DNA from: a virus
Length of the DNA stretch: 64,000 nucleotides
IMG/VR virus record: IMGVR_UViG_3300002144_000089
Coordinates: 1,098-65,097 of that record
Direction: 5' to 3' (one strand)
Shown: positions 11,847-64,000 of the stretch, piece after piece
Position numbering within the stretch: position 1 is the stretch's first letter
How the letters are laid out: each line of letters opens with the position of its first letter
Position numbers and translations under genes: made by a program
The notes under the pieces: model-generated
What the model was told of the DNA's origin: nothing
What the model saw: the letters and a program-made list of their open reading frames with translations, nothing else
Database searches by the model: none

Positions 11847-11853
11847 CTAAATA
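11846..11853 (+). promoter_or_regulatory. Late promoter variant ACTAAATA for the baseplate operon
   Basis: Core TAAATA 24 nt upstream of the ATG at 11877; GGAG RBS. Confidence 0.55.
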
Positions 11854-48786: not shown

Positions 48787-48815
48787 TTGACAAATTGTTA
48801 GTTTCAATATATACT
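48787..48815 (+). promoter_or_regulatory. sigma70-type promoter TTGACA-17-TATACT for the enzyme cluster
   Basis: -35 at 48787-48792, -10 at 48810-48815; AGGAG RBS before the ATG at 48842. Confidence 0.8.
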
Positions 48816-48841
48816 AGTAATAATAAACTAGGAGTTTAACT

Positions 48842-49192
48842 ATGGATGAACGATTAGAAAAAGCATTGAACTTTTCTAACTACATGCTAACACTTAATAA
48901 TCAAAAAAGATTGATAGCAGAAAAATATCAAGAAGAACTAATTTATTTTTACAACGGGTCTCAGTTTAGTGTTACACGAGAATTAATTACATTTGTAAAC
49001 TTAATGATAACTGCTGATCAAGACGATATTGTTATAACTGATGACAATAGTATTCCGTGTTTTATTGAAAATTTGTCAGAATTTTACGATGAAATTGTAA
49101 GTGTATACATGCTGGCATCTAATAGATATCATGCAGAATATTCAAAATTAAAAGCAAACCGTAGCGTAGAGAAATTAGTTGATTATGAGTAA
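48842..49192 (+). CDS. Hypothetical 116-aa protein, possibly tail-fibre-assembly-chaperone-like
   Basis: Strong RBS; helical; follows the fibre module. Function is a guess from position. Confidence 0.6.
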   Translation: MDERLEKALNFSNYMLTLNNQKRLIAEKYQEELIYFYNGSQFSVTRELITFVNLMITADQDDIVITDDNSIPCFIENLSEFYDEIVSVYMLASNRYHAEYSKLKANRSVEKLVDYE

Positions 49193-50036
49193 AGGTGCAT
49201 TTTTAATTGCACGAAATAACGGCCATATTGACTATGTAAAACAGGCAGTATTTCTTGCAAGGCGAATAAAAAAATATTTAGACGTTCCTGTAACTATTGC
49301 TACTGACAGTGTTGATTATTTAGAATCAACTTTTGGTGTAGCAGATTTTGATAGAGTCATTAGGCTAGAAAATACGCAAGATAGTAATTTACGTTATTAT
49401 TTTGACGGTACTTTATCTAAACAAACAGCTAGTTTTAAAAATAACAACCGTGCAAGTGTTTATGATCTTTCTCCGTACGACGAAACACTGTTATTAGATA
49501 CCGATTATATTATTTCAAACGAGTTATTAAAGTCAACTTTTGACTCAACATTTGACTTTATGTTATATAAGAAATCTAGTGACGTTGCAAACGTGCGCGA
49601 CAAAAGAGAATTTGATAAAGTAAGCAACACTGGGGTTGATTTTTATTGGGCTACTGTTGTATTTTTTAGAAAAACAGAAACTAATAAAATATTCTTTGAC
49701 CTTGTTGCGCATATAGAACAAGAATGGAATCATTATAGACGAGTTTACCAAATAACTTCTAGTTTATTTAGAAACGACTATGCTTTTAGTATTGCAATTC
49801 ATATAATGAATGGGTTTGTACCTGGAGATTTTGCACAGCAATTGCCAGGTAGTATGATGTATACCACTGATAAAGATGTATTATGGCAGCTTAATGACGA
49901 CGAAATGATGTTTTTAGTAGAAAAGAAAGAATACTTAGGCGAATATACTGCACTAAAGACGTCAGGACAAACTATTCATGTTATGAATAAATCTAGTCTC
50001 AATAGAATAATTGATCAGGAGTTTGCAAATGACTAA
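49185..50036 (+). CDS. Putative GT-A fold nucleotide-diphospho-sugar transferase
   Basis: DxD motif LLLDTDY after RASVYDLSPYDET; FRNDYAFSIA; start set to the ATG at 49185. Confidence 0.65.
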   Translation: MSKGAFLIARNNGHIDYVKQAVFLARRIKKYLDVPVTIATDSVDYLESTFGVADFDRVIRLENTQDSNLRYYFDGTLSKQTASFKNNNRASVYDLSPYDETLLLDTDYIISNELLKSTFDSTFDFMLYKKSSDVANVRDKREFDKVSNTGVDFYWATVVFFRKTETNKIFFDLVAHIEQEWNHYRRVYQITSSLFRNDYAFSIAIHIMNGFVPGDFAQQLPGSMMYTTDKDVLWQLNDDEMMFLVEKKEYLGEYTALKTSGQTIHVMNKSSLNRIIDQEFAND

Positions 50037-50871
50037 AGGAATTGTAGTTCTTGCACAAAATAACACAACTGACAATTATGTAGAACAGGCGTGTTTATTG
50101 GCAATGAGTTTGAAGCTGCACAACACCGTTCCTATTAGTATAGTTACTAATGATATAGTGCCGGACGAATATTGTCATTTGTTTGATCAGATTATTCCTA
50201 TTCCGTGGGGTGATTCTGCAGCCTCATCAGATTGGAAAATTGAAAATAGATGGAAGTTGTATTATGCTACTCCATATAGAGAAACAATTATAATGGATAC
50301 TGATATGTTAGTGTTACAAAACATTGACACTTGGTGGGATTTCTTATCAAAATACGAACTATTTTTTACAAGTAAGGTTTTAACTTATAGAGGCACGCCT
50401 GCTAATACTAGTTACTATAGAAGAACGTTTATTGATAATAATTTACCAAATTTATTCAGCGGATTACATTATTTTAAGAAGTGCGATTTTGCACATAAGT
50501 TTTATAACTTGTTAGATATAGTAGTAAAAAACTGGAAACCGTTTTATGAACAACATCTAGAAGCAACGCATCGACCTAAACATATGAGCATTGATGTGTG
50601 CGCAGCAATTGTTACACGTATATTAGATTGCGAATCTAAAATTACAAACACAGTGGTTACGTACCCTAGTTTTACTCATATGAAACCGCATTGTCAAGAC
50701 TGGCACGAAGTTTACATTAATTGGCAAGATCAAATTGGAGTTTATATTTCAAAAGACGGAAGTTTAAAAATTGGAAATTATGCACAAACAGGAATTTTAC
50801 ATTATACTGAAAACGACTTTTTGACAAAGACTCCTGTTGTAGAAATATATAGGAGTTTGTTAAATGTCTAA
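50029..50871 (+). CDS. Putative GT-A fold glycosyltransferase, paralog of the previous gene
   Basis: KIENRWKLYYATPYRETIIMDTDM (DxD), C-terminal ILHY; ATG at 50029 with AGGAG RBS overlapping the previous gene. Confidence 0.65.
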   Translation: MTKGIVVLAQNNTTDNYVEQACLLAMSLKLHNTVPISIVTNDIVPDEYCHLFDQIIPIPWGDSAASSDWKIENRWKLYYATPYRETIIMDTDMLVLQNIDTWWDFLSKYELFFTSKVLTYRGTPANTSYYRRTFIDNNLPNLFSGLHYFKKCDFAHKFYNLLDIVVKNWKPFYEQHLEATHRPKHMSIDVCAAIVTRILDCESKITNTVVTYPSFTHMKPHCQDWHEVYINWQDQIGVYISKDGSLKIGNYAQTGILHYTENDFLTKTPVVEIYRSLLNV

Positions 50872-51529
50872 TCTACACGATTTAATTAAAAATTTGCAAG
50901 TTGGTGTAATTAGTACTAATTCATATGTATACTACGATAAAGACTCTGGCAAAATACATAAGATTAGCTCAACAAATACACCTGATGAGAATTTTGAAAT
51001 TGTTGCAATCCCAAATAAAGAAGTAAATCCTATTCTTACAGGAGAAAAGCGTATAGACGAGTTTGTTATATTTTATGATGTTAGTTTAAAACAAATACGT
51101 CTAAAGCCTGTTACCTTTACTGGAATCCAATATACTGCATCTAATACATGTTATCAGTTACCTATTACAAATTCTGTTCTGTGTCACCAACTGCCTGTTG
51201 TTAGCACTAACAAGAATTCTGCTATTGACGATAATGATATTGTTGTGCAACAAGATATTGTTAAAAAACAATGGAATATTTTAATTAACCCGCATACTAA
51301 GAACTTCTTAATTAAAAATACTCACGGCTATGATGAGACATTAAATTTTAGTGTTACATCAAAGCACGATCCAAATATATTTTATAGAAGTTTAGAATGC
51401 ACAGTAGGAGATTTATTGTCTGACGATATTACAAGTATACCGTTCAAATATGAAACAGAAAGTAGTGTAGATGACGTAAGTATATATACAGCAAAATACT
51501 TTGACAACTATGTACACGAGGTTATTTAA
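50864..51529 (+). CDS. Hypothetical 221-aa protein
   Basis: Translationally coupled with an AGGAG RBS; no motif recognised. Confidence 0.6.
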   Translation: MSNLHDLIKNLQVGVISTNSYVYYDKDSGKIHKISSTNTPDENFEIVAIPNKEVNPILTGEKRIDEFVIFYDVSLKQIRLKPVTFTGIQYTASNTCYQLPITNSVLCHQLPVVSTNKNSAIDDNDIVVQQDIVKKQWNILINPHTKNFLIKNTHGYDETLNFSVTSKHDPNIFYRSLECTVGDLLSDDITSIPFKYETESSVDDVSIYTAKYFDNYVHEVI

Positions 51530-52443
51530 TGGCAAAATTTAAACCAATCGACTGCGATATCATCTACCTTAGTTACGATGAACCAAACGCAGAAAAAAAC
51601 TACGCAGACTTACTTACTAAAGTGCCGTGGGCAAAACGGGTACACGGCGTAGAAGGTAGTGATGCAGCGCACAAAGCATGTGCTAGACTAAGTGAAACAG
51701 ATCGATTTATTACTGTTGACGGTGACAATCGTATTAAGGAAGAGTTTTTAAATCAAGAAATTGATTTTGATGAGCATGCTGATTTAAGCAGTAGTGTAAT
51801 TAGTTGGGCTGGAAAAAATGTTATCAATGGATTGATCTACGGCAACGGTGGATTAAAATGTTGGCCTAAAGAATATGTACTCAAAATGAAAACACATGAG
51901 AATGCTGATCCGAATAATCAACATGCCCAAGTTGATTTTTGTTGGGATACAAAGTATATACAAATGGAAGGCACATACTGCGATGTGCATAACAACTCTA
52001 CTGCACAACAAGCATGGCGAGCAGGTTTCCGTGAAGGTGTCAAGATGGCACTGGACCGCGGCTTGCGTGTTACTAAAGAAGAATTTGTAAAACTGCATTG
52101 GAAGAATCTACACAGACTTTATATTTGGCTCATGGTAGGAGCAGATGCAGAAAACGGTAACTGGGCTATACTTGGATCAAGAGCTGGATTATACATGACA
52201 ATGTGTACAGACTGGGACTTTGTTAATGTTCGCGATTTTGAATATCTAAATGATTTATGGAAAGTTTCTTTTGAGTCAATTGAAGATGTTGAGTATGAAA
52301 TAGAAGAATATGGTATTAAATTAATTGATCAACTGGATATTCCTATTGCTGAAGTGCCGTTAAATGCGCAACAAAGTAAATTCTTTAAAACAATTTACCA
52401 AAATCCTATGCGCATGTCAAACAAGTTTATGGAAAAAGAATGA
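51529..52443 (+). CDS. Putative GT2-like glycosyltransferase
   Basis: IIYLSYDEPNAEKNY, RVHGVEG, FITVDGDN (DxD), YGNGGLK, AWRAGFREGVK. Confidence 0.6.
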   Translation: MAKFKPIDCDIIYLSYDEPNAEKNYADLLTKVPWAKRVHGVEGSDAAHKACARLSETDRFITVDGDNRIKEEFLNQEIDFDEHADLSSSVISWAGKNVINGLIYGNGGLKCWPKEYVLKMKTHENADPNNQHAQVDFCWDTKYIQMEGTYCDVHNNSTAQQAWRAGFREGVKMALDRGLRVTKEEFVKLHWKNLHRLYIWLMVGADAENGNWAILGSRAGLYMTMCTDWDFVNVRDFEYLNDLWKVSFESIEDVEYEIEEYGIKLIDQLDIPIAEVPLNAQQSKFFKTIYQNPMRMSNKFMEKE

Positions 52444-53699
52444 AAAAAGATACACTATGTACAATACCTTGGATGCATTTAAATTTTGAACCAAATGGCA
52501 AAGTTGTTCCGTGTTGCTTAACTTCTTCGCACAACTATTTTGCAGGAGATCTTAATACAGAAAGTATTCAAGAAATTTGGAATAGTGACAACATGAAAGC
52601 TCTTCGAAAAGAGATGCTTAATGGTGTTGAACCAAAGATATGTGACAAGTGTTTTAATAAAGAAAAAGTTACGCCTGAAAGTGGAAGATTTTTTAATAAC
52701 AGAGATTTTCCAGAAGTATTAGAAAAAATTCCAGAAATAACATTAGAAGATGGTACGTGTACTGAAATGGATTTAAAATATTGGGATTTTAGATTTAGTA
52801 ACTTGTGTAATTTTAAATGTCGTAGCTGCGGCCCTCGGTATAGCAGTGCTTGGGTACCTGATGCTAAAAAACTAGGTTACACAGATCAAGAAAAAGTATG
52901 GAGCATCGGATCAGTTGATGATCAAACTAATTTTGATTTCCTCAAAGACCAAATTGATGTTGTAAAGCGTATATATTTTGCAGGCGGCGAACCTTTATTG
53001 ATGCCCGAGCATTGGCAAATTTTAGACATGTTAGTCGAAAAAGAAAGATTTGATGTTAAGTTAAGTTACAACACTAATGCATCTGTTTTGTCTTACGGTA
53101 AGAAACATATTCTTGATTACTGGAGTAAATGGAAGTTTGGAAAATTAGAAGTGTGGCCAAGTATTGACGAGATAGGCGAAAGAGCAGAATTAATAAGATC
53201 AGGAACAGTATGGTCTAAGGTTGAAGAAAATTTAATAGAACTTACAAAGTATGAAAATATTATATTACGACCTGGTCTTACTATAGGTGCTTGGAATGTG
53301 CATCGATTGCCCGAAATTATCAATCATTTAATTTCTTTAGGAGTAATCAAAGGTCCTAATCCAAAAATAAAAGGTATTAAGTATAATAACTTCTTTATTA
53401 ATTTATTAGAACACCCTGTGCATTATCATGTAAGCATTTTATCTGATGAATATAGAGAACAAATATCTGCAAAGTTAAATGCATTTATTATAGAATATAA
53501 CGAAAAGTACAACACAGATATTGCACCGACGTTTGTACACATTTTATCTGAACTAAAGAAACCTTTTAATTTAAAAGCTGCAAAAAAATTCTTAGAATTA
53601 ACTAATCAGTTAGATAAGTTACGCAATGAAGATACTTTTAAAGTATTGCCAGAAATGGAAGATGTTAAACGTAGTGTAGAGAGGCACATAAATGTATGA
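52440..53699 (+). CDS. Radical SAM enzyme with N-terminal SPASM/twitch-like domain
   Basis: CNFKCRSC, YFAGGEP, YNTN; N-terminal CTIPW...PCC...CDKC. Confidence 0.9.
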   Translation: MKKDTLCTIPWMHLNFEPNGKVVPCCLTSSHNYFAGDLNTESIQEIWNSDNMKALRKEMLNGVEPKICDKCFNKEKVTPESGRFFNNRDFPEVLEKIPEITLEDGTCTEMDLKYWDFRFSNLCNFKCRSCGPRYSSAWVPDAKKLGYTDQEKVWSIGSVDDQTNFDFLKDQIDVVKRIYFAGGEPLLMPEHWQILDMLVEKERFDVKLSYNTNASVLSYGKKHILDYWSKWKFGKLEVWPSIDEIGERAELIRSGTVWSKVEENLIELTKYENIILRPGLTIGAWNVHRLPEIINHLISLGVIKGPNPKIKGIKYNNFFINLLEHPVHYHVSILSDEYREQISAKLNAFIIEYNEKYNTDIAPTFVHILSELKKPFNLKAAKKFLELTNQLDKLRNEDTFKVLPEMEDVKRSVERHINV

Positions 53700-54366
53700 T
53701 ATTGTTTTCATAAGCTATAATGAACCTACTGCTGATGCAAATTATGCAGCACTAAAGGAAAGATTTCCAATAGCTAAACGAGTTCACGGTGTAAAAGGCA
53801 TTCATCAAGCACACATTAAAGCAGCAAAAAAGTGCTTTACTAAAATGGTATGGATTGTTGATGCAGATGCAGTAATTAAAGAAGATTTTAACTTTGAATA
53901 TGAAGTGCCCGATCATCAATTAGATCACGTACACGTTTGGCGCAGTCAAAATCCGATTAATGATCTAGTCTACGGGTACGGCGGCATTAAGTTATTTCCA
54001 CGAAAAATGACAATTGATATGGATGTTAGTAAGCCTGACATGACTACAAGCATTAGTAATAATTTTGTATTAATGCCTTATATTGCAAATGTTACTGCGT
54101 TTAATACAGGCGAGTTTGAAACTTGGAAAAGTGCATTTAGAGAATGTTGTAAACTTGCAAGCAAAGTTATTGATAGACAAAAGTCAGAAGAAACTGATAA
54201 AAGATTGCACACATGGTGTACAATAGGAGAAGATCGTCCATTTGGTAGCTATGCTATTCAAGGTGCAAAAGCAGGCGCAGCATATGGCGCAAGAAATCGA
54301 GGCAATGCAGAAGCACTTAAACAAATTAACGACTTCGATTGGTTAAAGGAAAAGTTTAATGAGTAA
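53692..54366 (+). CDS. Putative GT2-like glycosyltransferase, paralog of 51529..52443
   Basis: IVFISYNEPTADANY, RVHGVKG, WIVDADA (DxD), YGYGGIK, WKSAFRECCK. Confidence 0.6.
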   Translation: MYDIVFISYNEPTADANYAALKERFPIAKRVHGVKGIHQAHIKAAKKCFTKMVWIVDADAVIKEDFNFEYEVPDHQLDHVHVWRSQNPINDLVYGYGGIKLFPRKMTIDMDVSKPDMTTSISNNFVLMPYIANVTAFNTGEFETWKSAFRECCKLASKVIDRQKSEETDKRLHTWCTIGEDRPFGSYAIQGAKAGAAYGARNRGNAEALKQINDFDWLKEKFNE

Positions 54367-55192
54367 TGAAAGTACTTTAAGCTGGGTAAGAGGTCTATCA
54401 GAATATTTAAGATTTGTTGATGATAAAGAAGCAAAAAAGTTTATTGATTTTTTAGAACAAGCTATGTATGCAGATTCGCCAGTAATTGATGATACTAATC
54501 AAGCAGGAATGATTGAATTTATAAGTGTATTAAGAAAGTTTACACCAAACCCAATTTTTGATATATTTCATAAGTATTACAGATTAGGTAATAACCCATT
54601 ATTGCTACAAGATGCATTTAGTAGAGGACAGGTATTAAGTAAAATCTGGTTAGCTGAAGAATTATTAAAAATTAAAAATAATTTTGAAATGATTCATGTA
54701 CATGCAGGATGGTTTGGACAGCTACGTCTTTACCTTGATGCAGCAAATATCTCTTATAATAAAATGAGAATTTTTGATATTGATCCAGCTGCACTAGAAG
54801 TGAGCGACAAAATTTTTAATAATGATAAAATTAAAGACTTTGAAGTAAAATCTGCAAGTTTAGATATTACAAATCCTACTTGGTTATTTAGAACAGGATG
54901 CGAATATAATATAACTGCTACATCTAAAGAAAAAACAATACCTGATCTTGTAGTTAATACTAGCGCAGAACACTTTAACGAAGATTGGTATACTAAATTT
55001 ACTATTAGAACTCAAAGCAGTGATCCTCTTTTTGTAATTCAAACAAACAATTTATTTGAGGTAGAAGAACACATAAACTGTGTACACAGTATAAATGAAA
55101 TGTTAATTAAATTTCCAATGACACGGATCGAATATGCAGGCGAAAAAGAACTATTTGGTTATAAAAGATTTATGTTGATTGGTAGACCATGA
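54359..55192 (+). CDS. Class I SAM-dependent methyltransferase-like protein
   Basis: AFSRGQVLSKIWL, HAGWFGQL (degenerate motif I), FDIDP, VVNTSAEH. Confidence 0.6.
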   Translation: MSNESTLSWVRGLSEYLRFVDDKEAKKFIDFLEQAMYADSPVIDDTNQAGMIEFISVLRKFTPNPIFDIFHKYYRLGNNPLLLQDAFSRGQVLSKIWLAEELLKIKNNFEMIHVHAGWFGQLRLYLDAANISYNKMRIFDIDPAALEVSDKIFNNDKIKDFEVKSASLDITNPTWLFRTGCEYNITATSKEKTIPDLVVNTSAEHFNEDWYTKFTIRTQSSDPLFVIQTNNLFEVEEHINCVHSINEMLIKFPMTRIEYAGEKELFGYKRFMLIGRP

Positions 55193-55410
55193 ATATAGAT
55201 GATTTAAGTTTAAGAGAATTGCAAAAGGAAAGCGCTCGTGCGCTAAGTACTATAGACGCAACAAATAATAACATATGGCAGTTTAACAAGCAAGCACATC
55301 ATAATAGCCAAAATTGGTATACAGCAGTTATTAAATGGTATGTAGAACAGTACGGCGACTTACCGAGTAAAGTTGGCCCAGGTAAGGATGTAAAATTAAT
55401 ATTGGAATGA
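55189..55410 (+). CDS. Hypothetical 73-aa protein
   Basis: ATGA overlap with the previous stop. Confidence 0.6.
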   Translation: MNIDDLSLRELQKESARALSTIDATNNNIWQFNKQAHHNSQNWYTAVIKWYVEQYGDLPSKVGPGKDVKLILE

Positions 55411-56357
55411 CAATGAACGTAATTGAAATTTTAAAAGAAAATAAAAAATCTATAATTGATCAAGCAGTAGAGTGGATTAAAAACTCTTATCCTAATCGTA
55501 CTACTGAATTTGAAAAGTGCTATAGAGATATTGGATATGTATATGATGCATGGATATATGATTTAGTAAATACTGGAACTGATAGAACACAAAATATTAC
55601 CAGTAGATTTTGGAACAGGGGAAAGTCTCAGTTAAAAACAACTGATGTCGAAGTAAAAACTTACAAAATAATTAATACTTTGATAAATGAAATTTGCCCG
55701 TCTAGTGACATTGATAATTTAATATCTATTACAATAGGCAATATTTTAAATGAACCAATTTATAAATTAGGTTCTTTTGAATACCTTAGAGACAAAAGAA
55801 TTAATACGTATAATTGGACAAATCAAATACCTGAACAGCATTTAATAGATGACATTGTAAGAGGCATACACAATTATGTGCCGAGTAAACAGCGTCGAGT
55901 TAGATACGATTTACGTATTATTCCTACACATGCAATGCCTGAGTTACAACAAAAAATGTATAGAGGTACAGAAGCAGATCTAGGTAATCCAAAATCAAGA
56001 TATAATCCTCAGGTTCTTGCTCCGTATGTGCTTGCATTTGGCATTAGAGGAACACCGCAAGACAATGTTGATAAAAACTACTATCTTTATGAAGCAGGAG
56101 TTGAAATAGGTCTTGCAGCAATGTACGTTAGTCTTGCTGCTCCTGCTGTTGGGTTGGCTGTTGGATTTTGCGCTTGTATACAAAATGACAACAACATGGT
56201 CGATGATATCGGAATACACCCTCAACTATATTTAGGAATTGGTTATAAATCCGACGATGTTACATATCATTGCCCGGTGTATAATGCCGAAGCTTACATA
56301 CCAAACAGCGACGACTACCAAAAACCTCCAATAGAAGAATATATAAAATATGTATAA
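55407..56357 (+). CDS. Nitroreductase-like protein with an N-terminal helical (CxRDIGY) domain
   Basis: C-terminal PSKQ motif and EAGVEIGLAAMYVSLAAPAVGLAVGFCACI...LYLGIGY nitroreductase-fold pattern. Confidence 0.5.
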   Translation: MTMNVIEILKENKKSIIDQAVEWIKNSYPNRTTEFEKCYRDIGYVYDAWIYDLVNTGTDRTQNITSRFWNRGKSQLKTTDVEVKTYKIINTLINEICPSSDIDNLISITIGNILNEPIYKLGSFEYLRDKRINTYNWTNQIPEQHLIDDIVRGIHNYVPSKQRRVRYDLRIIPTHAMPELQQKMYRGTEADLGNPKSRYNPQVLAPYVLAFGIRGTPQDNVDKNYYLYEAGVEIGLAAMYVSLAAPAVGLAVGFCACIQNDNNMVDDIGIHPQLYLGIGYKSDDVTYHCPVYNAEAYIPNSDDYQKPPIEEYIKYV

Positions 56358-57417
56358 GTATGAAGATATAAGATCAATTCATCTTGAAGTAACTCAAAAT
56401 TGTCAAGCCAGTTGTCCTATGTGTGATCGTAATATGAACGGTCAAGGTATCAATCCACACATTAATTTAGATGAACTTACACTAGAAGATTGCAAAAAGA
56501 TATTCCTTCCAGAGTTCATTGCACAGCTTAACACAATGTATATGTGCGGAAATTTAGGTGATCCTATTGTTGCAAAAGATACATTAGAAATATTCAAATA
56601 CTTCCGCGAACACAACACTAATATGTGGTTAAGCATGAACACAAATGCTGGAGCAAAAAGTGCAGATTGGTGGACTAAATTAGCCCATGTCTTTGGAAGA
56701 ATGGGCGCAGTTATTTTTAGTGTCGACGGCCTACGTGACACTAACCATATCTATCGTCAAGGCGTTGTATGGGATAATGTAGAACGTAATATGCAAGCAT
56801 TTATTGCAGCAGGCGGCAGAGCTCGTTGGGACTTTTTAATATTTGAACATAATCAACATCAAGTTGAGGAAGCAGAAGCACTTGCTAATGCCTGGGGCTG
56901 CGAGAAGTTTATGAAGAAAAAGACAGGCCGCTTTATCACGCAAGATTCAAAGAAAAAAGAATCGCACCAAGCAGTTGACAAAAAAGGAAAGGTAGCAGCA
57001 GAATTAAAAAAACCTGATATTAAATATCAAAATAATGCATTAAAGACTCAAGAAAAAGTAGAAAAGAAATATAATAGTATGGATGCATACTATGATAGAG
57101 CTCCTATTATTTGTAAAGTAAAGAAAGACAATAGCTTGTTCATTACAGCAGAAGGTCTAGCATTGCCTTGTTGTTGGACAGCTGGACGCATGTACAAATG
57201 GTGGCATAAAGATCCTAAGGTAGAACAAATATGGGATTTTATCCCTAATAAAAATGCATTAGATGCACGTAACGGATTAGCAGCAGTATTTGACACAGGT
57301 ATATTTGATACTATACAAGACAGTTGGAGCAAAGATAGTTGCTCAAATGGCAAATTAAAAGTATGCGCCATGAAGTGTGGCGCAGAGTTTGATCCTTTTG
57401 CTGAACAGTTTAAGTGA
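56350..57417 (+). CDS. Radical SAM enzyme with C-terminal twitch/SPASM-like domain
   Basis: HLEVTQNCQASCPMCDR, CGNLGDP, SMNTN, FSVDG; C-terminal ICK...ITAEGLALPCCW...CAMKC. Confidence 0.9.
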   Translation: MYKYEDIRSIHLEVTQNCQASCPMCDRNMNGQGINPHINLDELTLEDCKKIFLPEFIAQLNTMYMCGNLGDPIVAKDTLEIFKYFREHNTNMWLSMNTNAGAKSADWWTKLAHVFGRMGAVIFSVDGLRDTNHIYRQGVVWDNVERNMQAFIAAGGRARWDFLIFEHNQHQVEEAEALANAWGCEKFMKKKTGRFITQDSKKKESHQAVDKKGKVAAELKKPDIKYQNNALKTQEKVEKKYNSMDAYYDRAPIICKVKKDNSLFITAEGLALPCCWTAGRMYKWWHKDPKVEQIWDFIPNKNALDARNGLAAVFDTGIFDTIQDSWSKDSCSNGKLKVCAMKCGAEFDPFAEQFK

Positions 57418-58343
57418 GTACCAGTATGCCGTCATTACTAATAGAAGATAAATTATCAAAAAAACCTCGAATTCCAAAAAAAATTAACAAGTTTTTAAGG
57501 AATCATTATCTCTATTTCTTTCCTGAATACCCGCTAGCTAATCTAAGTCATATACCTGGTGCAGCCGAGGATTATCTGTCTGATAACAAACTTAGAAATT
57601 ATTATGTCAATTTAGACTATAAAATGATAGAGCACAGAGATCATCCTAAACGAATAGTAGGAGAGATGTGCAATTTATCAAATTTTTTAATTACTAGCAT
57701 GGACCAAACCGGCATTTCTTCTCCTTTAAATTTTTATGATAGTAACAGTATACATCCTGGAAATAAAAGATTGTTATGTGCAAGATATTTAAATTTAAAA
57801 TATGTTCCAGTAGTGTGGCAAAGTTTTATATATATTCCTGGTTTAACGCGAATAACAACTTTGGAAGATATCTATAATATATACGGAACAAATATAAGTA
57901 TTAATCTTGCACCTAAATCATATGGACCTTCTAGATTAGAAATATCATGGCACGGCGAAACACATCGTAGAGATCATAACGGATACGATGATTGGTATAC
58001 TACAAGTAGACTTCGTACTGAGTTTAGTATATTAGACTATCTATTAACACACGGATTAGAAATTGTTAACTCTACAATTGAAAAAGAAATTACAAATACA
58101 CAATATCCTATAAAATATACAAAAGCAAGAAAAAATAAAATATCTATTGAAATATTAGACAATTCCTTAATGGATGAAAACTTAGACTTTTGGGAATTGT
58201 ATTTTCACATTGATCCTATGGTTGCTTCAAAGTTATGTAAAACAAAAAGAATTAGAATTATAAATGACTATGCTACAGGTAACACATTAACAGAATGCAA
58301 TCTATACAACACGCTAATAAGAAGGAAGTATCATTTTGATTAA
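57414..58343 (+). CDS. Hypothetical 309-aa protein, possibly containing a ParB/Srx-like GNxR motif
   Basis: Coupled ORF; IHPGNKRLLCARYL resembles the ParB/sulfiredoxin GxxR motif. The start may be GTG 57414 or ATG 57426. Confidence 0.45.
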   Translation: MSTSMPSLLIEDKLSKKPRIPKKINKFLRNHYLYFFPEYPLANLSHIPGAAEDYLSDNKLRNYYVNLDYKMIEHRDHPKRIVGEMCNLSNFLITSMDQTGISSPLNFYDSNSIHPGNKRLLCARYLNLKYVPVVWQSFIYIPGLTRITTLEDIYNIYGTNISINLAPKSYGPSRLEISWHGETHRRDHNGYDDWYTTSRLRTEFSILDYLLTHGLEIVNSTIEKEITNTQYPIKYTKARKNKISIEILDNSLMDENLDFWELYFHIDPMVASKLCKTKRIRIINDYATGNTLTECNLYNTLIRRKYHFD

Positions 58344-58890
58344 CACTAATTTTATACCTACTAAAGTCGATGGACAATATTGTGTTTATTATTTTAATAA
58401 TTTAATAGAATCTACTGCATTTGAAAAATTAAAAAATGCTACAACAAATTATCCCTTTAATTTTATTAATGGAAAAAGAACAGATGCAGTAGAAAGAATA
58501 TGGCTGCATCAAACTACTGATAATAGTTTAAAACAACTAGCAGCTTCTTTTGACTCACTAGAAATAAAACAGTTATTCAGCAGATTTGTTAATACTGATT
58601 TAACTAGTATGTATACAAGAATTGAATTGTGTAATGACATAAAAGGTAGTTGGTTAGAAGATCATGTCGATGACCCTGCTAAAAAGTTTACACTGCAATT
58701 TTATCTAACTAATATAAAAAATAGTACTATACACAACGGAAAATCAAGAGACGCTGTTGAAAACAACGGCTGGTTTTTTTTGAATACTGGAACTGAATAC
58801 CACAGCTTGTCGCCATTAACAGCAGCAAGATCGAGTATTATAGTAAATTATGTAGATGATTTATGGTGCGACAAAACAGTATTAGTATAA
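58336..58890 (+). CDS. Putative 2OG-Fe(II) oxygenase
   Basis: HxD (LEDHVDD), FTLQFYL strand, distal His (EYHSL) and Arg (ARSSIIVNY). Confidence 0.6.
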   Translation: MINTNFIPTKVDGQYCVYYFNNLIESTAFEKLKNATTNYPFNFINGKRTDAVERIWLHQTTDNSLKQLAASFDSLEIKQLFSRFVNTDLTSMYTRIELCNDIKGSWLEDHVDDPAKKFTLQFYLTNIKNSTIHNGKSRDAVENNGWFFLNTGTEYHSLSPLTAARSSIIVNYVDDLWCDKTVLV

Positions 58891-58943
58891 AATAACGGCA
58901 CCGAATCTAACCCAATTATAACAAACTGGAAATAAGTAATAGT

Positions 58944-60353
58944 ATGACAGAGAAAAAAGCACCAAGCGAAACATTTTGCCTCCTTCCGTGGGTACATTTA
59001 AGTACAAGACCTGACGGAAGCATGCGAGTATGCTGTACTGCAAATGCAAGCAGTGTCGGCGCAACTAATGATAAAGAACACGGCGGACAAGTTGGTATTC
59101 TTAAAACAGATGACGGCAAGCCCAATAACTTAAACGTAAGTGACTTTGAAACAGCATGGAACAGCACATACATGAAAAATGTGCGTAAGCAAATGCTTGC
59201 CGGAGAAAAACCTCCTAGTTGTTTGAAGTGCTACAGAGAAGAAGCAGCAGGACATAATAGCAAACGTATGTGGGAAACTGCATATTGGAGTCAACGTACA
59301 GATGTTGATAAACTAATTGCTGATACTGCTGAAGATGGTAGTGTGCCTCCGCAACTAGCATACATTGACTTGCGCTTTGGCACAAAGTGTCAGCTTGCGT
59401 GTGTTATGTGCAGTCCGCATGATAGTAGTGGTTGGATTAAAGATTATAAAGCAATCTTTCCTGATGTTAAAAACGAGTCACTTAAAGAAACAATGCAGTG
59501 GCAAGACAAAGGCAGTACTAACGGCAGTAGCTACAACTGGCATAAACAAAATCCTACATTTTGGAAACAGTTTTATGAGCAAATGCCTAGTATGCAACAA
59601 ATTTACTTTGCCGGCGGCGAAAGTCTTATTATCGAAGAGCATTACGAAATACTTGAACACGCTATTAAAATGGGTTATGCAAAAGACTTAGAGTTACGTT
59701 ATAACTCAAATGGTGTAGAATGGCGCGAAGATTTGTTTGAGTTGTGGAAAGAATTTAAGCTAGTACGATTCCACTACTCGATTGACAGTATCGAACAGAT
59801 GAATGAATATATTCGTTATCCAAGTAAATGGAGTCGTCAAGCAGAAGTATTTCATATATTAGATAAGAAAACAAGTAATAATGTTGAAGTTACTGTAGCT
59901 TGTGCAGTACAAGCTCTAAATATATATTACATACCTGATCTTATCAAATGGAAACTTACACAAGGATTTAAAAAAATCAACATGTGGCCATTTGGCGCCG
60001 GCGGCGTAAACTATCATTTTGTTTACCATCCACCGCATCTTAATGTTAAAGTATTGCCAGCTTGGTTTAAAGCCGAAGTGCGTAAAAAGTACGAAGAGTT
60101 TTATCCATGGTGGGAAGCTAATTGGGAGTTAGGTGTTCCTAGTTGGCACAAAGGAAAGGTTGATTATGACAAATGGCGTAGTGCTAGTTACGGTATTAGT
60201 CGTCTTGAAGGCATGTTACAGTTTATGGAATCAGAAGACTGGAGTCAACGCTTACCTGAGATGAAAGAGTTTTTAAGTCTTTGTGATAAACAGCGAGGAA
60301 TGTTGTTTGAAGATACATTCCCAGAAATGAAGGATATATTTAATGTTAGCTAA
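58944..60353 (+). CDS. Radical SAM enzyme with N-terminal SPASM/twitch-like domain
   Basis: CQLACVMC, YFAGGES, YNSN; N-terminal CLLPW...VCC...CLKC. Confidence 0.9.
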   Translation: MTEKKAPSETFCLLPWVHLSTRPDGSMRVCCTANASSVGATNDKEHGGQVGILKTDDGKPNNLNVSDFETAWNSTYMKNVRKQMLAGEKPPSCLKCYREEAAGHNSKRMWETAYWSQRTDVDKLIADTAEDGSVPPQLAYIDLRFGTKCQLACVMCSPHDSSGWIKDYKAIFPDVKNESLKETMQWQDKGSTNGSSYNWHKQNPTFWKQFYEQMPSMQQIYFAGGESLIIEEHYEILEHAIKMGYAKDLELRYNSNGVEWREDLFELWKEFKLVRFHYSIDSIEQMNEYIRYPSKWSRQAEVFHILDKKTSNNVEVTVACAVQALNIYYIPDLIKWKLTQGFKKINMWPFGAGGVNYHFVYHPPHLNVKVLPAWFKAEVRKKYEEFYPWWEANWELGVPSWHKGKVDYDKWRSASYGISRLEGMLQFMESEDWSQRLPEMKEFLSLCDKQRGMLFEDTFPEMKDIFNVS

Positions 60354-61221
60354 GATTAACAGAGCAGAAGACATTGCGAATCATAAAACTTATAGACTAG
60401 ATTACGAACACTGGTTAGCAAATTTAAAAGACCCAACTGTACAACAAAATATAGCAGCAAACTTTCAAAAAGCAGAAGTATTTGATGAAGCATTTACTGA
60501 AGAAGAAATTAGTTGGATGTATGGATATGCATTTAGTCGTTGCGATACAGTAAGACATAATGATAACGGTACAATGTTTATAAGCGGCAACCTACAGGGA
60601 GTATATGAAAAATTTGCTGATCGCATAAATCAAATGGTACCGGGTGCAGAAAACTCACCTGTTGTTGGCGGCAATTTCTTTATCACTCCTAGTCAGTATG
60701 GATTACATAATGATAGTACTAGAGAATCGGATTGGAAAAATAGTTTAACTAAGACTTCTATAGATCACGAAGGTCGCAAATGGGCGCCTTGGAGAAATAT
60801 CATTATTCCGTTATTTACTGCGCCTAACAATATAGAAAGTCATGCTGTATTTTTTAGCCAGCGCCATGTTGATTTTGCTCACGTGTATCATCACGGTAAA
60901 AAACCAGAACAAACTGTTGCTACAACATATCCTATTGTTGATAATCATGTTGACATTGATTTTTATTTGTTAGATGGTACAATACAAGATAAAAAATTAA
61001 ATCTTGTAAAATATAACAAAGAACATTACGATGAGTATTTGTACTACACTCCTTATAGACGCTTAACAGGATTAACGCCTGAACTAACTTGCGAGTGGAA
61101 ACCTCGTGCTCCTATTGTGTTTGATGCTGTGCAATTGCATGCAACAAATAAAGGTCGTCCAGATAATCATTGGACAACTAAAATGGGGTTGTTACTAACA
61201 TTTCTTAGAGAGATAAAATGA
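60343..61221 (+). CDS. Putative 2OG-Fe(II) oxygenase-like protein
   Basis: YGLHND (HxD), NIIIPL, VFDAVQLHAT (distal His), terminal K-containing strand. Confidence 0.5.
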   Translation: MLAKINRAEDIANHKTYRLDYEHWLANLKDPTVQQNIAANFQKAEVFDEAFTEEEISWMYGYAFSRCDTVRHNDNGTMFISGNLQGVYEKFADRINQMVPGAENSPVVGGNFFITPSQYGLHNDSTRESDWKNSLTKTSIDHEGRKWAPWRNIIIPLFTAPNNIESHAVFFSQRHVDFAHVYHHGKKPEQTVATTYPIVDNHVDIDFYLLDGTIQDKKLNLVKYNKEHYDEYLYYTPYRRLTGLTPELTCEWKPRAPIVFDAVQLHATNKGRPDNHWTTKMGLLLTFLREIK

Positions 61222-62504
61222 ATTTAGATACCGTTTGTCCTGCTGTATGGGATCACCTATGCGTAAACACAATGGGGAAAAATCGTTTATGCTGTAATGC
61301 TGTTACACAAGACAAAGATAAATTTATTGGCAATCTTGACCAGCACTGGAATGCTCTAAGAGACAGTGTTAAGAAAGAAATGTTGTCCGGCAACCGCCCA
61401 GACATTTGCAAAAGTTGTTGGAAAAAAGAAGAATCTGGAATATCTAGTTTACGAGATCAATTTATTGAAAATTATAAAAATCAAGGTATCTGGGATAAAT
61501 TTGTAGATGACATTCCTACAACAAAAAAATATCCAGTAGAACTTGATCTTAAATTAGGAAATTACTGTAATCTAAGTTGTAGGATGTGCAGTAGCTATAG
61601 TAGCAGCGGCGTTGCAAATGAATTCCAAAAAATCCTTAAAGATACTGGTGTTGATTTAGGATTAGACGAGCACGAAAAGAACTTTGTTCAAAACAAATGG
61701 TATCTTCAAGAAGAGTTTGTAGATTCGATAAAAGACATGATTGCAAATGGATTGCGTCATTTAAAATTTACAGGCGGTGAACCTCTGATGGTTCCCAGCG
61801 TAAAGAAACTAATTGACTATTGTGTTGATAACGATTTTGCTAAAAATATTGATCTAATCATAATAACAAATGTAACACTAATAGATGACGAATGGATTGA
61901 ACGATTTAAAGCATTTAAATTTGTAAACATTATTTGTAGTATAGACGGCATAAGCGATACTTTCGAATATATAAGACATCCTGCAAATTGGAATGATGTA
62001 AACAGTAAGTTGCAAAAGTTATCTGATGTACAGACTGCGCAGCTGGTAACTTCGATTACGTTTACATTACAAATATATAATATTCTTGAAATTAGGAATA
62101 TGGTAGAGCTATCTAAAAAATATAACTTTCATATAACTGCTATTCCTTTAGACAAACCTGAATATCTAGATGTACGCAATGCTCCGCAGACTCTTAAAAA
62201 TACTGCATTAGAAATGATAGCAGATTTAGAAAATGAATTAAATCCAAAGACTACGCCTCGAACAGAAGATAACTGTCTATGTTTTCATGATTTAAAACCT
62301 AAAGACGTTCCGTGTGCTAGAACGTGCCCAATTGTACTTACTAATGTATTAGTCAAATTTGTTAATAATGTTAAAAAGAAAATTAATCAGCCCCAACAGC
62401 AAGACAATAGTAAGAAATTTTTAGAAATAACTAAATTAAAAGACACGTATAAAAAACAAAGTTTTGATACAATGGAGATAGCAAAGTACTATGACTCAAT
62501 CTAA
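61218..62504 (+). CDS. Radical SAM enzyme with N-terminal SPASM/twitch-like domain
   Basis: CNLSCRMC, FTGGEP, ITN, SIDG; N-terminal CPAVW...LCC...CKSC. Confidence 0.9.
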   Translation: MNLDTVCPAVWDHLCVNTMGKNRLCCNAVTQDKDKFIGNLDQHWNALRDSVKKEMLSGNRPDICKSCWKKEESGISSLRDQFIENYKNQGIWDKFVDDIPTTKKYPVELDLKLGNYCNLSCRMCSSYSSSGVANEFQKILKDTGVDLGLDEHEKNFVQNKWYLQEEFVDSIKDMIANGLRHLKFTGGEPLMVPSVKKLIDYCVDNDFAKNIDLIIITNVTLIDDEWIERFKAFKFVNIICSIDGISDTFEYIRHPANWNDVNSKLQKLSDVQTAQLVTSITFTLQIYNILEIRNMVELSKKYNFHITAIPLDKPEYLDVRNAPQTLKNTALEMIADLENELNPKTTPRTEDNCLCFHDLKPKDVPCARTCPIVLTNVLVKFVNNVKKKINQPQQQDNSKKFLEITKLKDTYKKQSFDTMEIAKYYDSI

Positions 62505-63645
62505 AACATTCTGTGCATTACCGTGGATGCATCTTGCTACTAATGCAAGCGGCAATCTTCGAGTGTGCTGTAACAGTACTCCGGGTAAAAACTTTATTAC
62601 TAAAAAAGACGGCACCCCTTACAAGCTACAAAAAGATGACTTACAAGAAGCATGGAATAGTGAAGTATATACTACTATTCGTAAGCAGTTACTTGCCGGC
62701 GAACGTCCTGAAATGTGTACACGTTGTTTTAGAGAAGAAGACGTTGGCATTAAAAGTGCTAGACAAAGTTGGAACAACAAGTGGGAAGAAGATAAAGAGT
62801 ATACAATAGATGCACCTTTTGACATTAAATATGTTGACTTACGGTTAGGCAACTTGTGTAATTTAAAATGTCGTATGTGCAATCCGTATGCAAGTAACAT
62901 GTGGGTTAAAGAATGGAACCTAGTTGAAACTGCACTTAGTGAAAGTGAATACAAGCGTCTTAGTAGTATGAACTGGCCTGAGCATGAAAAGACTTGGGAA
63001 AACTTGTTTAGTATTGCACACACAGTAGATGAAATATACCTAACAGGCGGCGAACCTACAGTTATTAAAGAACAACAAAAATTGTTAGATTACTTTATCG
63101 ACAACGGTACTGCAAAAGACATACGTTTAAAATACAATACTAATTTAGTTAAAGTACAACCTTGGCTACTTGAACGCTGGACTCATTTTAAACGAGTGCA
63201 ACTTAATTGCTCAATAGATGCTACTGGTGCATTAGATCATTATATTCGACATCCGAGTAAATGGGATACGATTGTAAAGAATTTTGAAACTATTAGACAG
63301 CTTCCTAATGCAGGAATTGAAATACACTGCACAGTACAAATGTACAATATATTAAGACTGCCTGAACTAATAGACTGGGCTACACCGTATGGACATAGAA
63401 TATATTTTAACATTCTTAATCATCCCGAAGAATTAAATATTAGAGTGTTGCCCAAACATCTAAAAGATCAAGCTGCAAAACAATTACAACCGTATTTGCA
63501 TTTAGATAAGGTGCAAGGTATTATTGATTATATGTATGCCGAAGATTGGAACAATAAATATAGTAAGTTTATAAAATACACAATTGCACTAGATGCAAGC
63601 AGAGGTGAAAACTTATTTGATCTAATACCGGAGTTTAATCAATGA
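62491..63645 (+). CDS. Radical SAM enzyme with N-terminal SPASM/twitch-like domain
   Basis: CNLKCRMC, LTGGEP, YNTN, SIDA; N-terminal CALPW...VCC...CTRC. Confidence 0.9.
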   Translation: MTQSKTFCALPWMHLATNASGNLRVCCNSTPGKNFITKKDGTPYKLQKDDLQEAWNSEVYTTIRKQLLAGERPEMCTRCFREEDVGIKSARQSWNNKWEEDKEYTIDAPFDIKYVDLRLGNLCNLKCRMCNPYASNMWVKEWNLVETALSESEYKRLSSMNWPEHEKTWENLFSIAHTVDEIYLTGGEPTVIKEQQKLLDYFIDNGTAKDIRLKYNTNLVKVQPWLLERWTHFKRVQLNCSIDATGALDHYIRHPSKWDTIVKNFETIRQLPNAGIEIHCTVQMYNILRLPELIDWATPYGHRIYFNILNHPEELNIRVLPKHLKDQAAKQLQPYLHLDKVQGIIDYMYAEDWNNKYSKFIKYTIALDASRGENLFDLIPEFNQ

Positions 63646-64000
63646 AAATAGGAGTATTCGGCGATAGTTATGCAGAGCATACAGCAGCTAATCCTGCACA
63701 TTTAGAATGGTGGCAGTATGTACAACAATGTCCTAATATAGAAATAGACAATTATGGATTTGGCGGATCTAGTTTATACTATACGTGGAAACAATTCCAT
63801 ACTCACCAACACAAGTACGATAAGGTTATTGTTTGCTTAACAAAACCTAATAGACTTTGGATGCCACATTTACCAAAAGATTGGCAATCAGAACACGTTC
63901 ATGCTCTAGATGCTTTAAAACACAGAACTTTTAAAAATCCTTATGCTGCTAGAATTATGAAGAATGCATTAACATCATATTACAAGTATATTGTTAATTT
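63642..64000 (+). CDS. SGNH/GDSL hydrolase-like protein, 5' part (runs off the window)
   Basis: Translated by hand: MKIGVFGDSYAEH...IDNYGFGGSS; GDS block I and N.G..G block II; ATGA overlap with the previous stop. Confidence 0.7.
   Translation, partial: MKIGVFGDSYAEHTAANPAHLEWWQYVQQCPNIEIDNYGFGGSSLYYTWKQFHTHQHKYDKVIVCLTKPNRLWMPHLPKDWQSEHVHALDALKHRTFKNPYAARIMKNALTSYYKYIVN

Follow-up and report, generated by a model that had tools for sequence, protein, structure and literature searches.

A conserved four-gene core within a mosaic radical SAM and glycosyltransferase island of a putative marine jumbo phage

Introduction

Why would a phage keep glycosyltransferases and radical S-adenosylmethionine (SAM) enzymes together beside its tail-fibre genes? 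The question is raised by a stretch of 64,000 nucleotides (the window; positions 1,098 to 65,097 of IMG/VR virus record IMGVR_UViG_3300002144_000089), the last 15 kb of which (48787–64000) are filled by an island of such genes, numbered here from g01. A sequence-only reading of the window had suggested an undescribed biosynthetic pathway for modifying virion-surface glycans or proteins, or for remodelling the host envelope, rather than for modifying DNA. Radical SAM arrays of the N_Twi family, to which most of the island's radical SAM genes belong, take up 15–35 kb in a widespread group of marine jumbo phages, and no member of the family has a known reaction. Metagenomic surveys mention radical SAM cassettes in such regions and none assigns a function to them (PMC7029224, PMC5332604), so "undescribed" holds for the pathway, which has no characterised counterpart, and not for this kind of island.

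New in the present analysis are a strict pair of radical SAM genes (g11 and g14) inside a four-gene core, with g14 far better conserved than the phage's baseplate wedge; the contrast between a conserved early-type promoter and the late motifs of neighbouring genes, together with a lack of membrane machinery; and a cytidylyltransferase in relatives, alongside a GT2/GT-C gene context in a Bacteriovoracaceae chromosome. We read the island as a mosaic pathway in the cytoplasm for building a carbohydrate and editing it chemically, a reading that we think has about an even chance of being right.

A four-gene core in a mosaic island

The island comprises 20 open reading frames (ORFs; g01–g20), all on the + strand, from 48842 to the end of the contig, and g01–g18 start in the window. 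Neighbouring genes overlap at 18/19 junctions, by 1–26 nt, and the sole gap (53 nt) precedes g14; the roughly 18 coupled genes behind one sigma70 promoter that had been described thus stand, as 18 genes in the window and 20 on the contig. Searches of Pfam, PHROGs and NCBIfam with single sequences left 13/18 genes unnamed. The radical SAM genes and the other conserved genes are:

52440–53699, + strand: g06, N_Twi_rSAM radical SAM protein, variable paralog (NF033640, 361.5 bits)
53692–54366, + strand: g07, predicted GT-A fold transferase, conserved core gene (AF2 model, structure matches)
54359–55192, + strand: g08, predicted class I SAM-dependent methyltransferase with an N-terminal helical domain, core gene (AF2 model, Foldseek)
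55189–55410, + strand: g09, 73-aa conserved phage-only protein (homology in relatives)
56350–57417, + strand: g11, radical SAM protein with a C-terminal SPASM/twitch-like Cys domain, core gene (CX3CX2C, phrog_21308)
58944–60353, + strand: g14, N_Twi_rSAM protein, the most conserved island gene (NF033640, 420.2 bits)
61218–62504, + strand: g16, N_Twi_rSAM protein, variable paralog (NF033640, 283.0 bits)
62491–63645, + strand: g17, N_Twi_rSAM protein (NF033640, 401.9 bits)
Past the window on the contig, after g19, + strand: g20, truncated N_Twi-type radical SAM protein (NF033640, 73 bits)

A relative of g14 is encoded on 262 IMG/VR stretches, and our comparisons cover the best 80 of these 262. 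Across the 80 loci g07, g08, g09, g11 and g14 are nearly always present and in the same order, with median identities of 64% for g07 (49–75% in 70 loci), 34% for g08, 77% for g09 (65–86% in 71 loci, with nearly all positions conserved and no Cys), 74% for g11 and 87% for g14 (84–91%). Patchy in the same loci are g01–g04, g10, g12, g13, g15, g18 and g19. The closest relatives, L044 and L090, differ downstream of g17 and carry neither g12 nor g13, which together form an inserted cassette absent from them. Relatives keep the order of baseplate wedge, giant ORF, fibres and island, and the linkage of the island to the fibre module, which the sequence-only reading had marked for checking, is thereby upheld. 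The 15-kb extent given to the island falls short: in the relative G007 it runs for ~30–37 kb, holds ~13 radical SAM genes and is followed by an Mtd_N-type fibre gene, so the window shows roughly its first half.

The conservation of g14 stands out against that of the phage itself. Its orthologs in G004–G007 are 84–89% identical to g14, versus only 51–56% for the baseplate wedge; kept far more constant than the phage's own baseplate, g14 must do something essential. Four-fold degenerate third positions of g14 are only 44% identical, with synonymous sites near saturation. With so low an identity accompanying a highly identical protein, g14 has been under long-term purifying selection rather than recently transferred.

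Radical SAM enzymes with an N-terminal twitch-like domain

All five radical SAM genes first recognised in the window (g06, g11, g14, g16 and g17) hold, each with a CX3CX2C motif, and a sixth (g20) lies beyond it. Family membership was judged by NF033640 (NCBIfam N_Twi_rSAM, twitch domain-containing radical SAM protein), which has a curated cut-off of 170 bits. This is passed by g06, g14, g16 and g17; the truncated g20 (73 bits) and g11 (45 bits) fall below it and are not members by score. Pfam SPASM matches in g06, g14 and g17 start at residue 7, 8 or 12 and end at 71–97, ahead of Radical_SAM, which begins at about residue 113–145 in all four N_Twi proteins (in g06, SPASM covers residues 7–71 and Radical_SAM starts at 119). 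The N_Twi alignment has a near-invariant C8...G21xxxxC26C27...C76xxC79 pattern followed by C123xxxC127xxC130, with C26, C27, C76, C79, C123, C127 and C130 invariant. As these cysteines suffice for one auxiliary cluster, the N-terminal domain is probably a twitch domain holding one such cluster. The arrangement is reversed in g11, where the core comes first (CX3CX2C at residue 18) and is followed by a C-terminal CX13GX4CC...CX7CX3C region; g11 matches phrog_21308 (E 6e-19).

The N_Twi paralogs of the island are mutually 24–32% identical, and g14 represents one slowly evolving orthogroup among them. Against the Protein Data Bank (PDB), the N_Twi profile matches SkfB best (E 7e-10) and viperin, BlsE and MoaA more weakly, all four in the core only. 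No characterised N_Twi_rSAM member was found in literature searches or among solved structures. The literature searches likewise returned nothing on N-terminal SPASM/twitch enzymes, radical SAM polysaccharide epimerases, Bdellovibrio radical SAM paralogs or jumbo-phage radical SAM/glycosyltransferase islands.

Glycosyltransferases and a methyltransferase

Besides g07, three genes of the island encode GT-A-type transferases:

49179–50036, + strand: g02, GT8-like GT-A transferase, paralog of g03 (family profile, paralogy)
50011–50871, + strand: g03, GT8-like GT-A transferase (family profile shared with g02)
51529–52443, + strand: g05, predicted GT-A fold transferase, longer paralog of g07 (paralogy)

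Two pairs of paralogous GT-A/DxD proteins had been claimed, and both pairs are real: g02 and g03 are paralogs at E 1e-11, g05 and g07 at E 1e-27 (34% identity), and the Asp residues of the DxD motif are invariant in each family (D107 and D109 in g02/g03; D57xD59 in the g05/g07 alignment, A1). The g02/g03 family profile (A2) matches glycogenin-1 and -2, both GT8 enzymes, at E 2e-4 over profile positions 13–101 only; Pfam Glyco_transf_8 did not match g02 or g03, and g03 has a weak Pfam Mannosyl_trans3 match (E 0.013).

For g05/g07, Pfam gave only sub-threshold matches (e.g. Glyco_tranf_2_3, E 0.056), and PDB profile searches with this family (A1) and with g08 (A3) found nothing by sequence, so that structure prediction was needed for both. 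The AlphaFold2 (AF2) model of g07 (predicted local distance difference test, pLDDT, 90.7) has Foldseek matches at E ~1e-4 to WrtF, ppGalNAcT, RmlT, TarP and SunS, and structural matches (VIA) to GT-A enzymes with Z 9–11.7; the chlorovirus PBCV-1 enzyme A64R is among its structural matches, and the AFDB comparison places it as GT2-like. An Atlas search with g07 matched only unnamed viral clusters. On its model, the g05/g07 family thus appears to combine a GT-A Rossmann-like fold with a DxD motif. The AF2 model of g08 (pLDDT 89.1) has at least 500 Foldseek matches at E <= 1e-3, and the top listed are nearly all methyltransferases (PsoF at 1.8e-8, CalH, NNMT), which bears out the methyltransferase that had been proposed; the predicted fold is that of a class I SAM methyltransferase.

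Counterparts in predatory bacteria

The core is not confined to phages. The N_Twi profile, run against one genome per prokaryote species, returned 281 loci, mostly in Bdellovibrionota, and three Bdellovibrio-like genomes that we examined (~3 Mb each) carry 10–14 full N_Twi copies per genome, at several loci. Orthologs of g14 (52–61% identity) occur at 15 loci of bacterial metagenome-assembled genomes (MAGs), 14 from Bdellovibrionota and one labelled Parcubacteria, and a g11 ortholog (41–48%) accompanies the g14 ortholog in 15/15. Many of these loci also carry g07-like (40–44%) and g08-like (about 30%) genes, and orthologs of g17 in Bdellovibrionota are 49–51% identical. On a Bacteriovoracaceae chromosome, four GT2 genes, one GT-C gene (PMT_2) and one FAD oxidase gene lie between g08/g05/g07-like genes and an N_Twi array. 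The tree of g14 orthologs places the phage sequences in a single clade next to Bacteriovoracaceae (moderate support), and branches throughout this orthogroup are much shorter than those of the g17-like group.

A prophage origin of the Bdellovibrionota clusters was set aside: one cluster lies on a 0.9-Mb contig among housekeeping genes, and there are several loci per genome. Three MAG contigs labelled Crocinitomicaceae (L090), Neisseriaceae (L150) and Rickettsiales (L164) were also left out of the bacterial loci, since they carry the phage-only g09 and island genes 56–95% identical to those of the window, and are probably mis-binned phage contigs. The locus labelled Candidatus Parcubacteria (L119, on a 1.27-Mb contig) has nine N_Twi or g11-like genes in ~14 kb, its g14 ortholog being 52% identical; this content is unexpected for the group, and the label may be wrong.

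The bacterial loci bear on whether the island could instead mature a peptide or protein, with the radical SAM enzymes modifying a ribosomal product (g09 or a fibre protein), in the manner of a ribosomally synthesised and post-translationally modified peptide (RiPP) or by cross-linking a structural protein, and the transferases glycosylating it. Arrays of SPASM/twitch radical SAM genes are typical of peptide maturases, SkfB, the best PDB match of the N_Twi profile, points the same way, and among the structures matched by g07 are the S-glycosyltransferases SunS and ThuS as well as polypeptide GalNAc-transferases. Linkers rich in Ser, Thr and Pro are present in the adjacent fibre protein, and the small, highly conserved g09 lies directly upstream of g10/g11 in 71/80 loci. 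However, every Bdellovibrionota locus with g11 and g14 lacks g09, for which reason we rejected it as the general substrate; its cysteine-free sequence, conserved end to end, is unlike a leader-plus-core peptide; domain searches detected no RRE/PqqD domain, protease or peptidase, or exporter or transporter, and the island holds no set of precursor, RRE/PqqD and protease or exporter of the RiPP type; and the Bacteriovoracaceae context is rich in glycosyltransferases. A complex prediction for g09 with g11 scored 0.00, with the partner's own fold uncertain, and weighs neither way on binding. We consider peptide or protein maturation unlikely, if the strongest of the three alternatives weighed here.

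Promoter and timing of expression

The last fibre gene stops at 48775 and is followed by a 66-nt gap that carries the island's promoter:

48787–48815, + strand: sigma70-type promoter, TTGACA-17-TATACT, in the 66-nt gap after the last fibre gene

This is the best-scoring sigma70-like site within 46–64 kb (11/12). The layout TTGACx-17-TATAxT is kept before g01 in 9/10 relatives, 19–25 nt from g01 in eight of those nine, and the hexamers and 17-nt spacer are retained though g01 itself is only 35–50% identical. TAAATA is the core of T4-type late promoters. It is found within 80 nt upstream of six of the structural gene starts checked (11877, 20067, 20567, 39441, 44061 and 46538), the sites themselves lying before baseplate and fibre genes at 11847, 20057, 20512/20537, 39418, 44027 and 46504/46508, and upstream of 0/18 island genes in the same 80-nt check. 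The TAAATA sites look like late promoters of the source phage. Given the conserved sigma70-type promoter and the lack of TAAATA on island genes, the island is probably transcribed early, as a unit of its own within a late region. Two further signals lie within it, a terminator-like hairpin with a T run in the 3' part of g13 (58753–58770) and a sigma70-like site (TTAACA-17-TATAGT, 58816–58844) just ahead of the sole intergenic gap, upstream of g14.

Early sigma70-type promoters are typical of known phage DNA-modification genes, and the promoter therefore counts in favour of nucleotide or DNA hypermodification, in which an early-expressed island would use GT-A sugar transfer and radical tailoring to evade host restriction. 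A universal substrate, for instance a nucleotide, would be in keeping with the extreme conservation of g14, the N_Twi profile matches viperin, MoaA and BlsE, and QueC-like PP-loop genes occur in one phage relative's island and in one Bdellovibrionia chromosomal cluster. The genes that such a system would need were looked for, and the lack of DNA-modification hallmarks in the window, part of the sequence-only reading, was confirmed: none of the island's genes was recognised as encoding a kinase, a hydroxymethylase or a DNA-binding protein; four large relatives (30–71% complete) have no TGT/DpdA; the sole ThyA-family gene found sits 55 kb from the island (G004); and neither DpdA/TGT nor a ThyA-like hydroxymethylase with a kinase or transferase was found in or beside the cluster in these records of incomplete genomes. 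The fixed position inside the fibre module also speaks against DNA as the target, and the 10–14 copies spread over several loci of Bdellovibrionota chromosomes, which in one genome neighbour GT2 and GT-C genes of envelope type, are hard to reconcile with it. Hypermodification is in our judgement the least probable of the readings considered.

Variable genes and tailoring functions

The remaining genes of the island belong mostly to its mosaic part:

48842–49192, + strand: g01, 116 aa, travels with g02–g04 (no Pfam or PHROG match)
50864–51529, + strand: g04, 221 aa, fast-evolving (no family match)
55407–56357, + strand: g10, nitroreductase-like C-terminal half behind a helical N-terminal domain (profile A6)
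57414–58343, + strand: g12, 309 aa, variable cassette (partial phrog_4635 match only)
58336–58890, + strand: g13, 2-oxoglutarate (2OG)-Fe(II) oxygenase-like, a lead only, variable cassette (Atlas feature matches, HxD)
60343–61221, + strand: g15, DUF6445/2OG-oxygenase-like, a lead only (invariant triad, Atlas leads)
63642–64000, + strand: g18, GDS-motif SGNH-like protein, cut by the window end (211 aa on the contig)
Past the window on the contig, between g18 and g20, + strand: g19, paralog of g18 (E 1e-6)

Homologs of g01 were found in 13 loci (35–50% identity) and those of g04, merely 22–33% identical, in 15. The nitroreductase-like protein that had been proposed is recovered as the C-terminal half of g10: profile A6 matches the PDB nitroreductase 2b67 weakly, at E 3e-4, and four nitroreductase entries more weakly still, over residues ~125–285. 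The N-terminal ~120 residues of g10 (55407–55770) form a separate helical domain that faintly resembles phycobilisome/globin-like proteins and parts of giant tail-fibre PHROGs.

Of the two HxD...H oxygenase-like proteins claimed, g15 keeps an invariant candidate iron triad (H122, D124, H266) and has Atlas feature matches, language-model leads only, to DUF6445 and 2OG-FeII_Oxy_3 clusters; g13 has an HxD at residue 110 and Atlas feature matches to viral PF13640 clusters (score 0.95). Neither has a Pfam match, and the g15 profile has no PDB sequence match. No similarity was found between the g15 profile and either g13 or the Pfam-assigned Asp_Arg_Hydrox protein of the relative L088, or between g13 and the second Asp/Arg hydroxylase of L088. 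Both are at most probable 2OG oxygenases. The SGNH hydrolase fared similarly: a GDS motif is present at residue 7 of g18 (in g18 only) and a related contig's island encodes a 220-aa protein, perhaps akin to g18/g19, with a weak Lipase_GDSL match, while the part of g18 in the window has no Pfam match. We regard g18 and g19 as at most probable SGNH enzymes.

Relatives add further enzymes. In G007 a CTP_transf_3 cytidylyltransferase, of the CMP-Kdo/CMP-nonulosonate synthetase family, lies between the g11 and g14 orthologs (42.7 bits, cut-off 22.6), and this family is present in 3/~80 loci; aminotransferase, APH-like kinase, nitroreductase and hydroxylase genes also occur in relatives. A membrane helix is predicted in 0/20 products of g01–g20, all 20 being predicted soluble. 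No flippase, polymerase or GT-C was found in the islands of the 80 relatives, whose only family of multi-transmembrane proteins is fatty-acid-desaturase-like; such genes recur, for example at L180:10101–11626 and L088:13047–13766.

Could these enzymes make a diffusible small molecule, such as an aminocyclitol, an aminoglycoside-like or a nucleoside-like compound, used by phages and predatory bacteria that attack Gram-negative cells? The core is common to these two kinds of bacterial predators, relatives carry the aminotransferase, APH-like kinase, nitroreductase and hydroxylase genes just named, all products are soluble with no acceptor visible, and twitch enzymes such as BtrN act in aminoglycoside pathways. 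A cyanophage also combines a sugar aminotransferase, an inosamine amidinotransferase and a radical SAM gene (ORFs 305, 306 and 309; PMC12801897). Yet no exporter, resistance gene or scaffold-forming enzyme (e.g. an inositol-type cyclase) was recognised, four transferases and mosaic diversification look more like glycan decoration, and the link to fibre genes would go unexplained. Such a product seems to us improbable, less so than DNA hypermodification and more so than peptide maturation.

Source contig and phage lineage

The source is a 66,455-bp IMG/VR viral contig (CheckV completeness 19%), of which the window is 64 kb and which runs 1.4 kb beyond the window end. Its structural genes in the window include a gp5-like hub, a 1159-aa baseplate wedge, a 5124-aa ORF and several fibre genes. 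The wedge is nearest to those of the jumbo myoviruses Sinorhizobium phage Phosso, Agrobacterium phage Atu_ph07 and Salicola phage SCTP-2 (35–38% identity), with Salmonella and Klebsiella jumbo phages of 340–360 kb likewise among the nearest matches; contigs related to the source are 181–251 kb long, at CheckV completeness 51–71%. From this kinship and completeness, the lineage is probably an uncultured marine jumbo phage of roughly 350 kb (CheckV estimates).

The whole island as nucleotide query had no match in a phage collection, and tblastn of g14 against the same collection gave only distant matches of ~21% identity (Ralstonia phage RsoM2USA and Vibrio phages K566 and K567), so no cultured close relative is available. 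In Vibrio phage K566 (L001, record 160–170 kb), five g17 matches lie among clustered hypothetical genes, a gene for a PagP-like lipid A acyltransferase and genes of NAD salvage follow a few kb downstream, and the N_Twi gene has distant homologs in KVP40-type Vibrio phages.

The 745-aa fibre-like protein directly upstream of the island (46538–48775) carries the Pro-rich linkers TSTTPAASPPPPDPSPPPGPTP and SSPPPPPPVIPAP and, at its C terminus, two repeat domains that resemble each other, and may be an acceptor for glycosylation or hydroxylation.

A pathway that would build and edit a carbohydrate

Taken as a whole, we favour the reading of the island as a cytoplasmic carbohydrate pathway because of its four GT-A-fold genes, its methyltransferase and its SGNH-like pair, the CMP-sugar cytidylyltransferase of some relatives, the GT2/GT-C context in Bacteriovoracaceae, and the published occurrence of GT8 and radical SAM cassettes in pelagimyophages (PMC7029224) and of 12 radical SAM genes in T4-like marine genomes (PMC5332604).

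Under this carbohydrate reading, unmodified host polymerase would transcribe the island from its own early-type promoter. Sugars would be attached by the four GT-A-fold transferases of two families and decorated by the methyltransferase, the flavin (nitroreductase-like) enzyme, the two probable 2OG oxygenases and SGNH-type esterases or acyltransferases. For the radical SAM proteins, we infer from the analogy of twitch enzymes that they would act on a sugar through oxygen-independent hydrogen abstraction (oxidation to a keto-sugar, epimerisation, or C–C/C–N chemistry), each using one auxiliary [4Fe-4S] cluster in its twitch domain, N-terminal in N_Twi proteins and C-terminal in g11. The core of g07, g08, g11 and g14 would make a common product, with the strict g11+g14 pair performing the common radical step, and the surrounding variable paralogs would diversify this product.

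Several points weigh against this. The window has no sugar-nucleotide synthesis gene and the cytidylyltransferase is rare among relatives (3/~80); no acceptor was identified; and substrates are not known for any N_Twi_rSAM member, those of the nearest solved cores being mixed (peptide for SkfB, nucleotide for viperin and MoaA, sugar-nucleoside for BlsE). The predicted fold of g07 also resembles nucleotidyltransferases such as IspD, with similar structure scores. The very high conservation of g14 suits a universal small metabolite better than a phage-specific glycan. Moreover, L088 has two Asp/Arg beta-hydroxylase genes, which with the desaturase-like genes hints at lipid or protein substrates for some cassettes.

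Three acceptors can be envisaged. The genomic position would suit virion fibre proteins; the early promoter and the published proposal would suit a host-envelope precursor in the cytoplasm; and the extreme conservation of g14 would suit a soluble sugar nucleotide. The early-type promoter and the lack of late motifs do not favour virion decoration in particular, and the absence of flippase, GT-C and polymerase from the 80 relatives argues against envelope modification of the periplasmic Gtr type. The sequence-only reading is thus kept in its preference against DNA modification and loosened in its choice of target.

A more specific proposal, possible though we would not count on it, is that g11 and g14, with g07 and g08, carry out an undescribed oxygen-independent radical step towards a new sugar- or nucleotide-derived building block, needed by jumbo marine phages and predatory Bdellovibrionota alike and diversified by arrays of N_Twi paralogs. 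If true, this "radical glycan editing" would run through several steps, and no organism offers a characterised precedent for it. With only four genes, the core lends itself to expression and assay, which would assign a function for the first time in a large uncharacterised enzyme family and could reveal new oxygen-independent carbohydrate chemistry. It would also show what these phages target early in infection, be it virions, host envelope or a metabolite, and the costly investment in iron-sulfur clusters matters ecologically in iron-poor seas.

Comparison with known systems

Within the N_Twi_rSAM family (NF033640), g06, g14, g16 and g17 share the layout of an N-terminal Cys-rich twitch/SPASM-like domain followed by a CX3CX2C core; what differs here is an array of old paralogs around the slowly evolving g14, and family membership gives no function. 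BtrN, BlsE, MoaA and viperin likewise join a radical SAM core to one auxiliary-cluster domain, and the gene context here is sugar-rich. Unlike theirs, however, the N_Twi auxiliary domain is N-terminal rather than C-terminal, the similarity is limited to the core, and BtrN is not among the sequence matches.

Seroconversion by GtrABC is comparable in that phage genes alter a surface glycan, and the Bacteriovoracaceae counterpart includes GT2 and GT-C genes. It differs in that its membrane components, a flippase, a polyprenyl-phosphate (membrane) GT2 and a GT-C, are found neither in the island nor in the 80 relatives.

Freeman and colleagues reportedly described glycosylation of mycobacteriophage capsids and tails in 2023. 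Virus-encoded virion glycosylation is also exemplified by the capsid glycosyltransferase A64R of chlorovirus PBCV-1 (PMC11256854). Such systems use soluble, virus-encoded GT-A enzymes in the cytoplasm, without host membrane machinery, as the island would. The PBCV-1 and mycobacteriophage systems differ in containing no radical SAM enzymes, and mycobacteriophage glycosyltransferase genes sit in a late structural operon as opposed to the island's own early-type promoter.

The closest parallel is the host recognition cluster of pelagimyophages and cyanomyophages, which holds glycosyltransferases and radical SAM cassettes (Zaragoza-Solas et al, 2020; PMC7029224); the number of radical SAM genes reaches 12 in T4-like marine environmental genomes (Nishimura et al, 2017; PMC5332604). 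Both studies proposed modification of the host O-chain, and neither analysed the radical SAM genes, their conserved core, its Bdellovibrionota counterparts or the promoter. As in that cluster, a hypervariable region lies in the structural module by the tail fibres, with glycosyltransferases, most often GT8, and radical SAM cassettes whose presence varies between relatives, and the present island is such a region, mosaic among tail-fibre genes and with cassettes that differ between close relatives. It is set apart by its ~350-kb jumbo lineage, with a baseplate nearest Atu_ph07 and Rak2-type jumbo phages.

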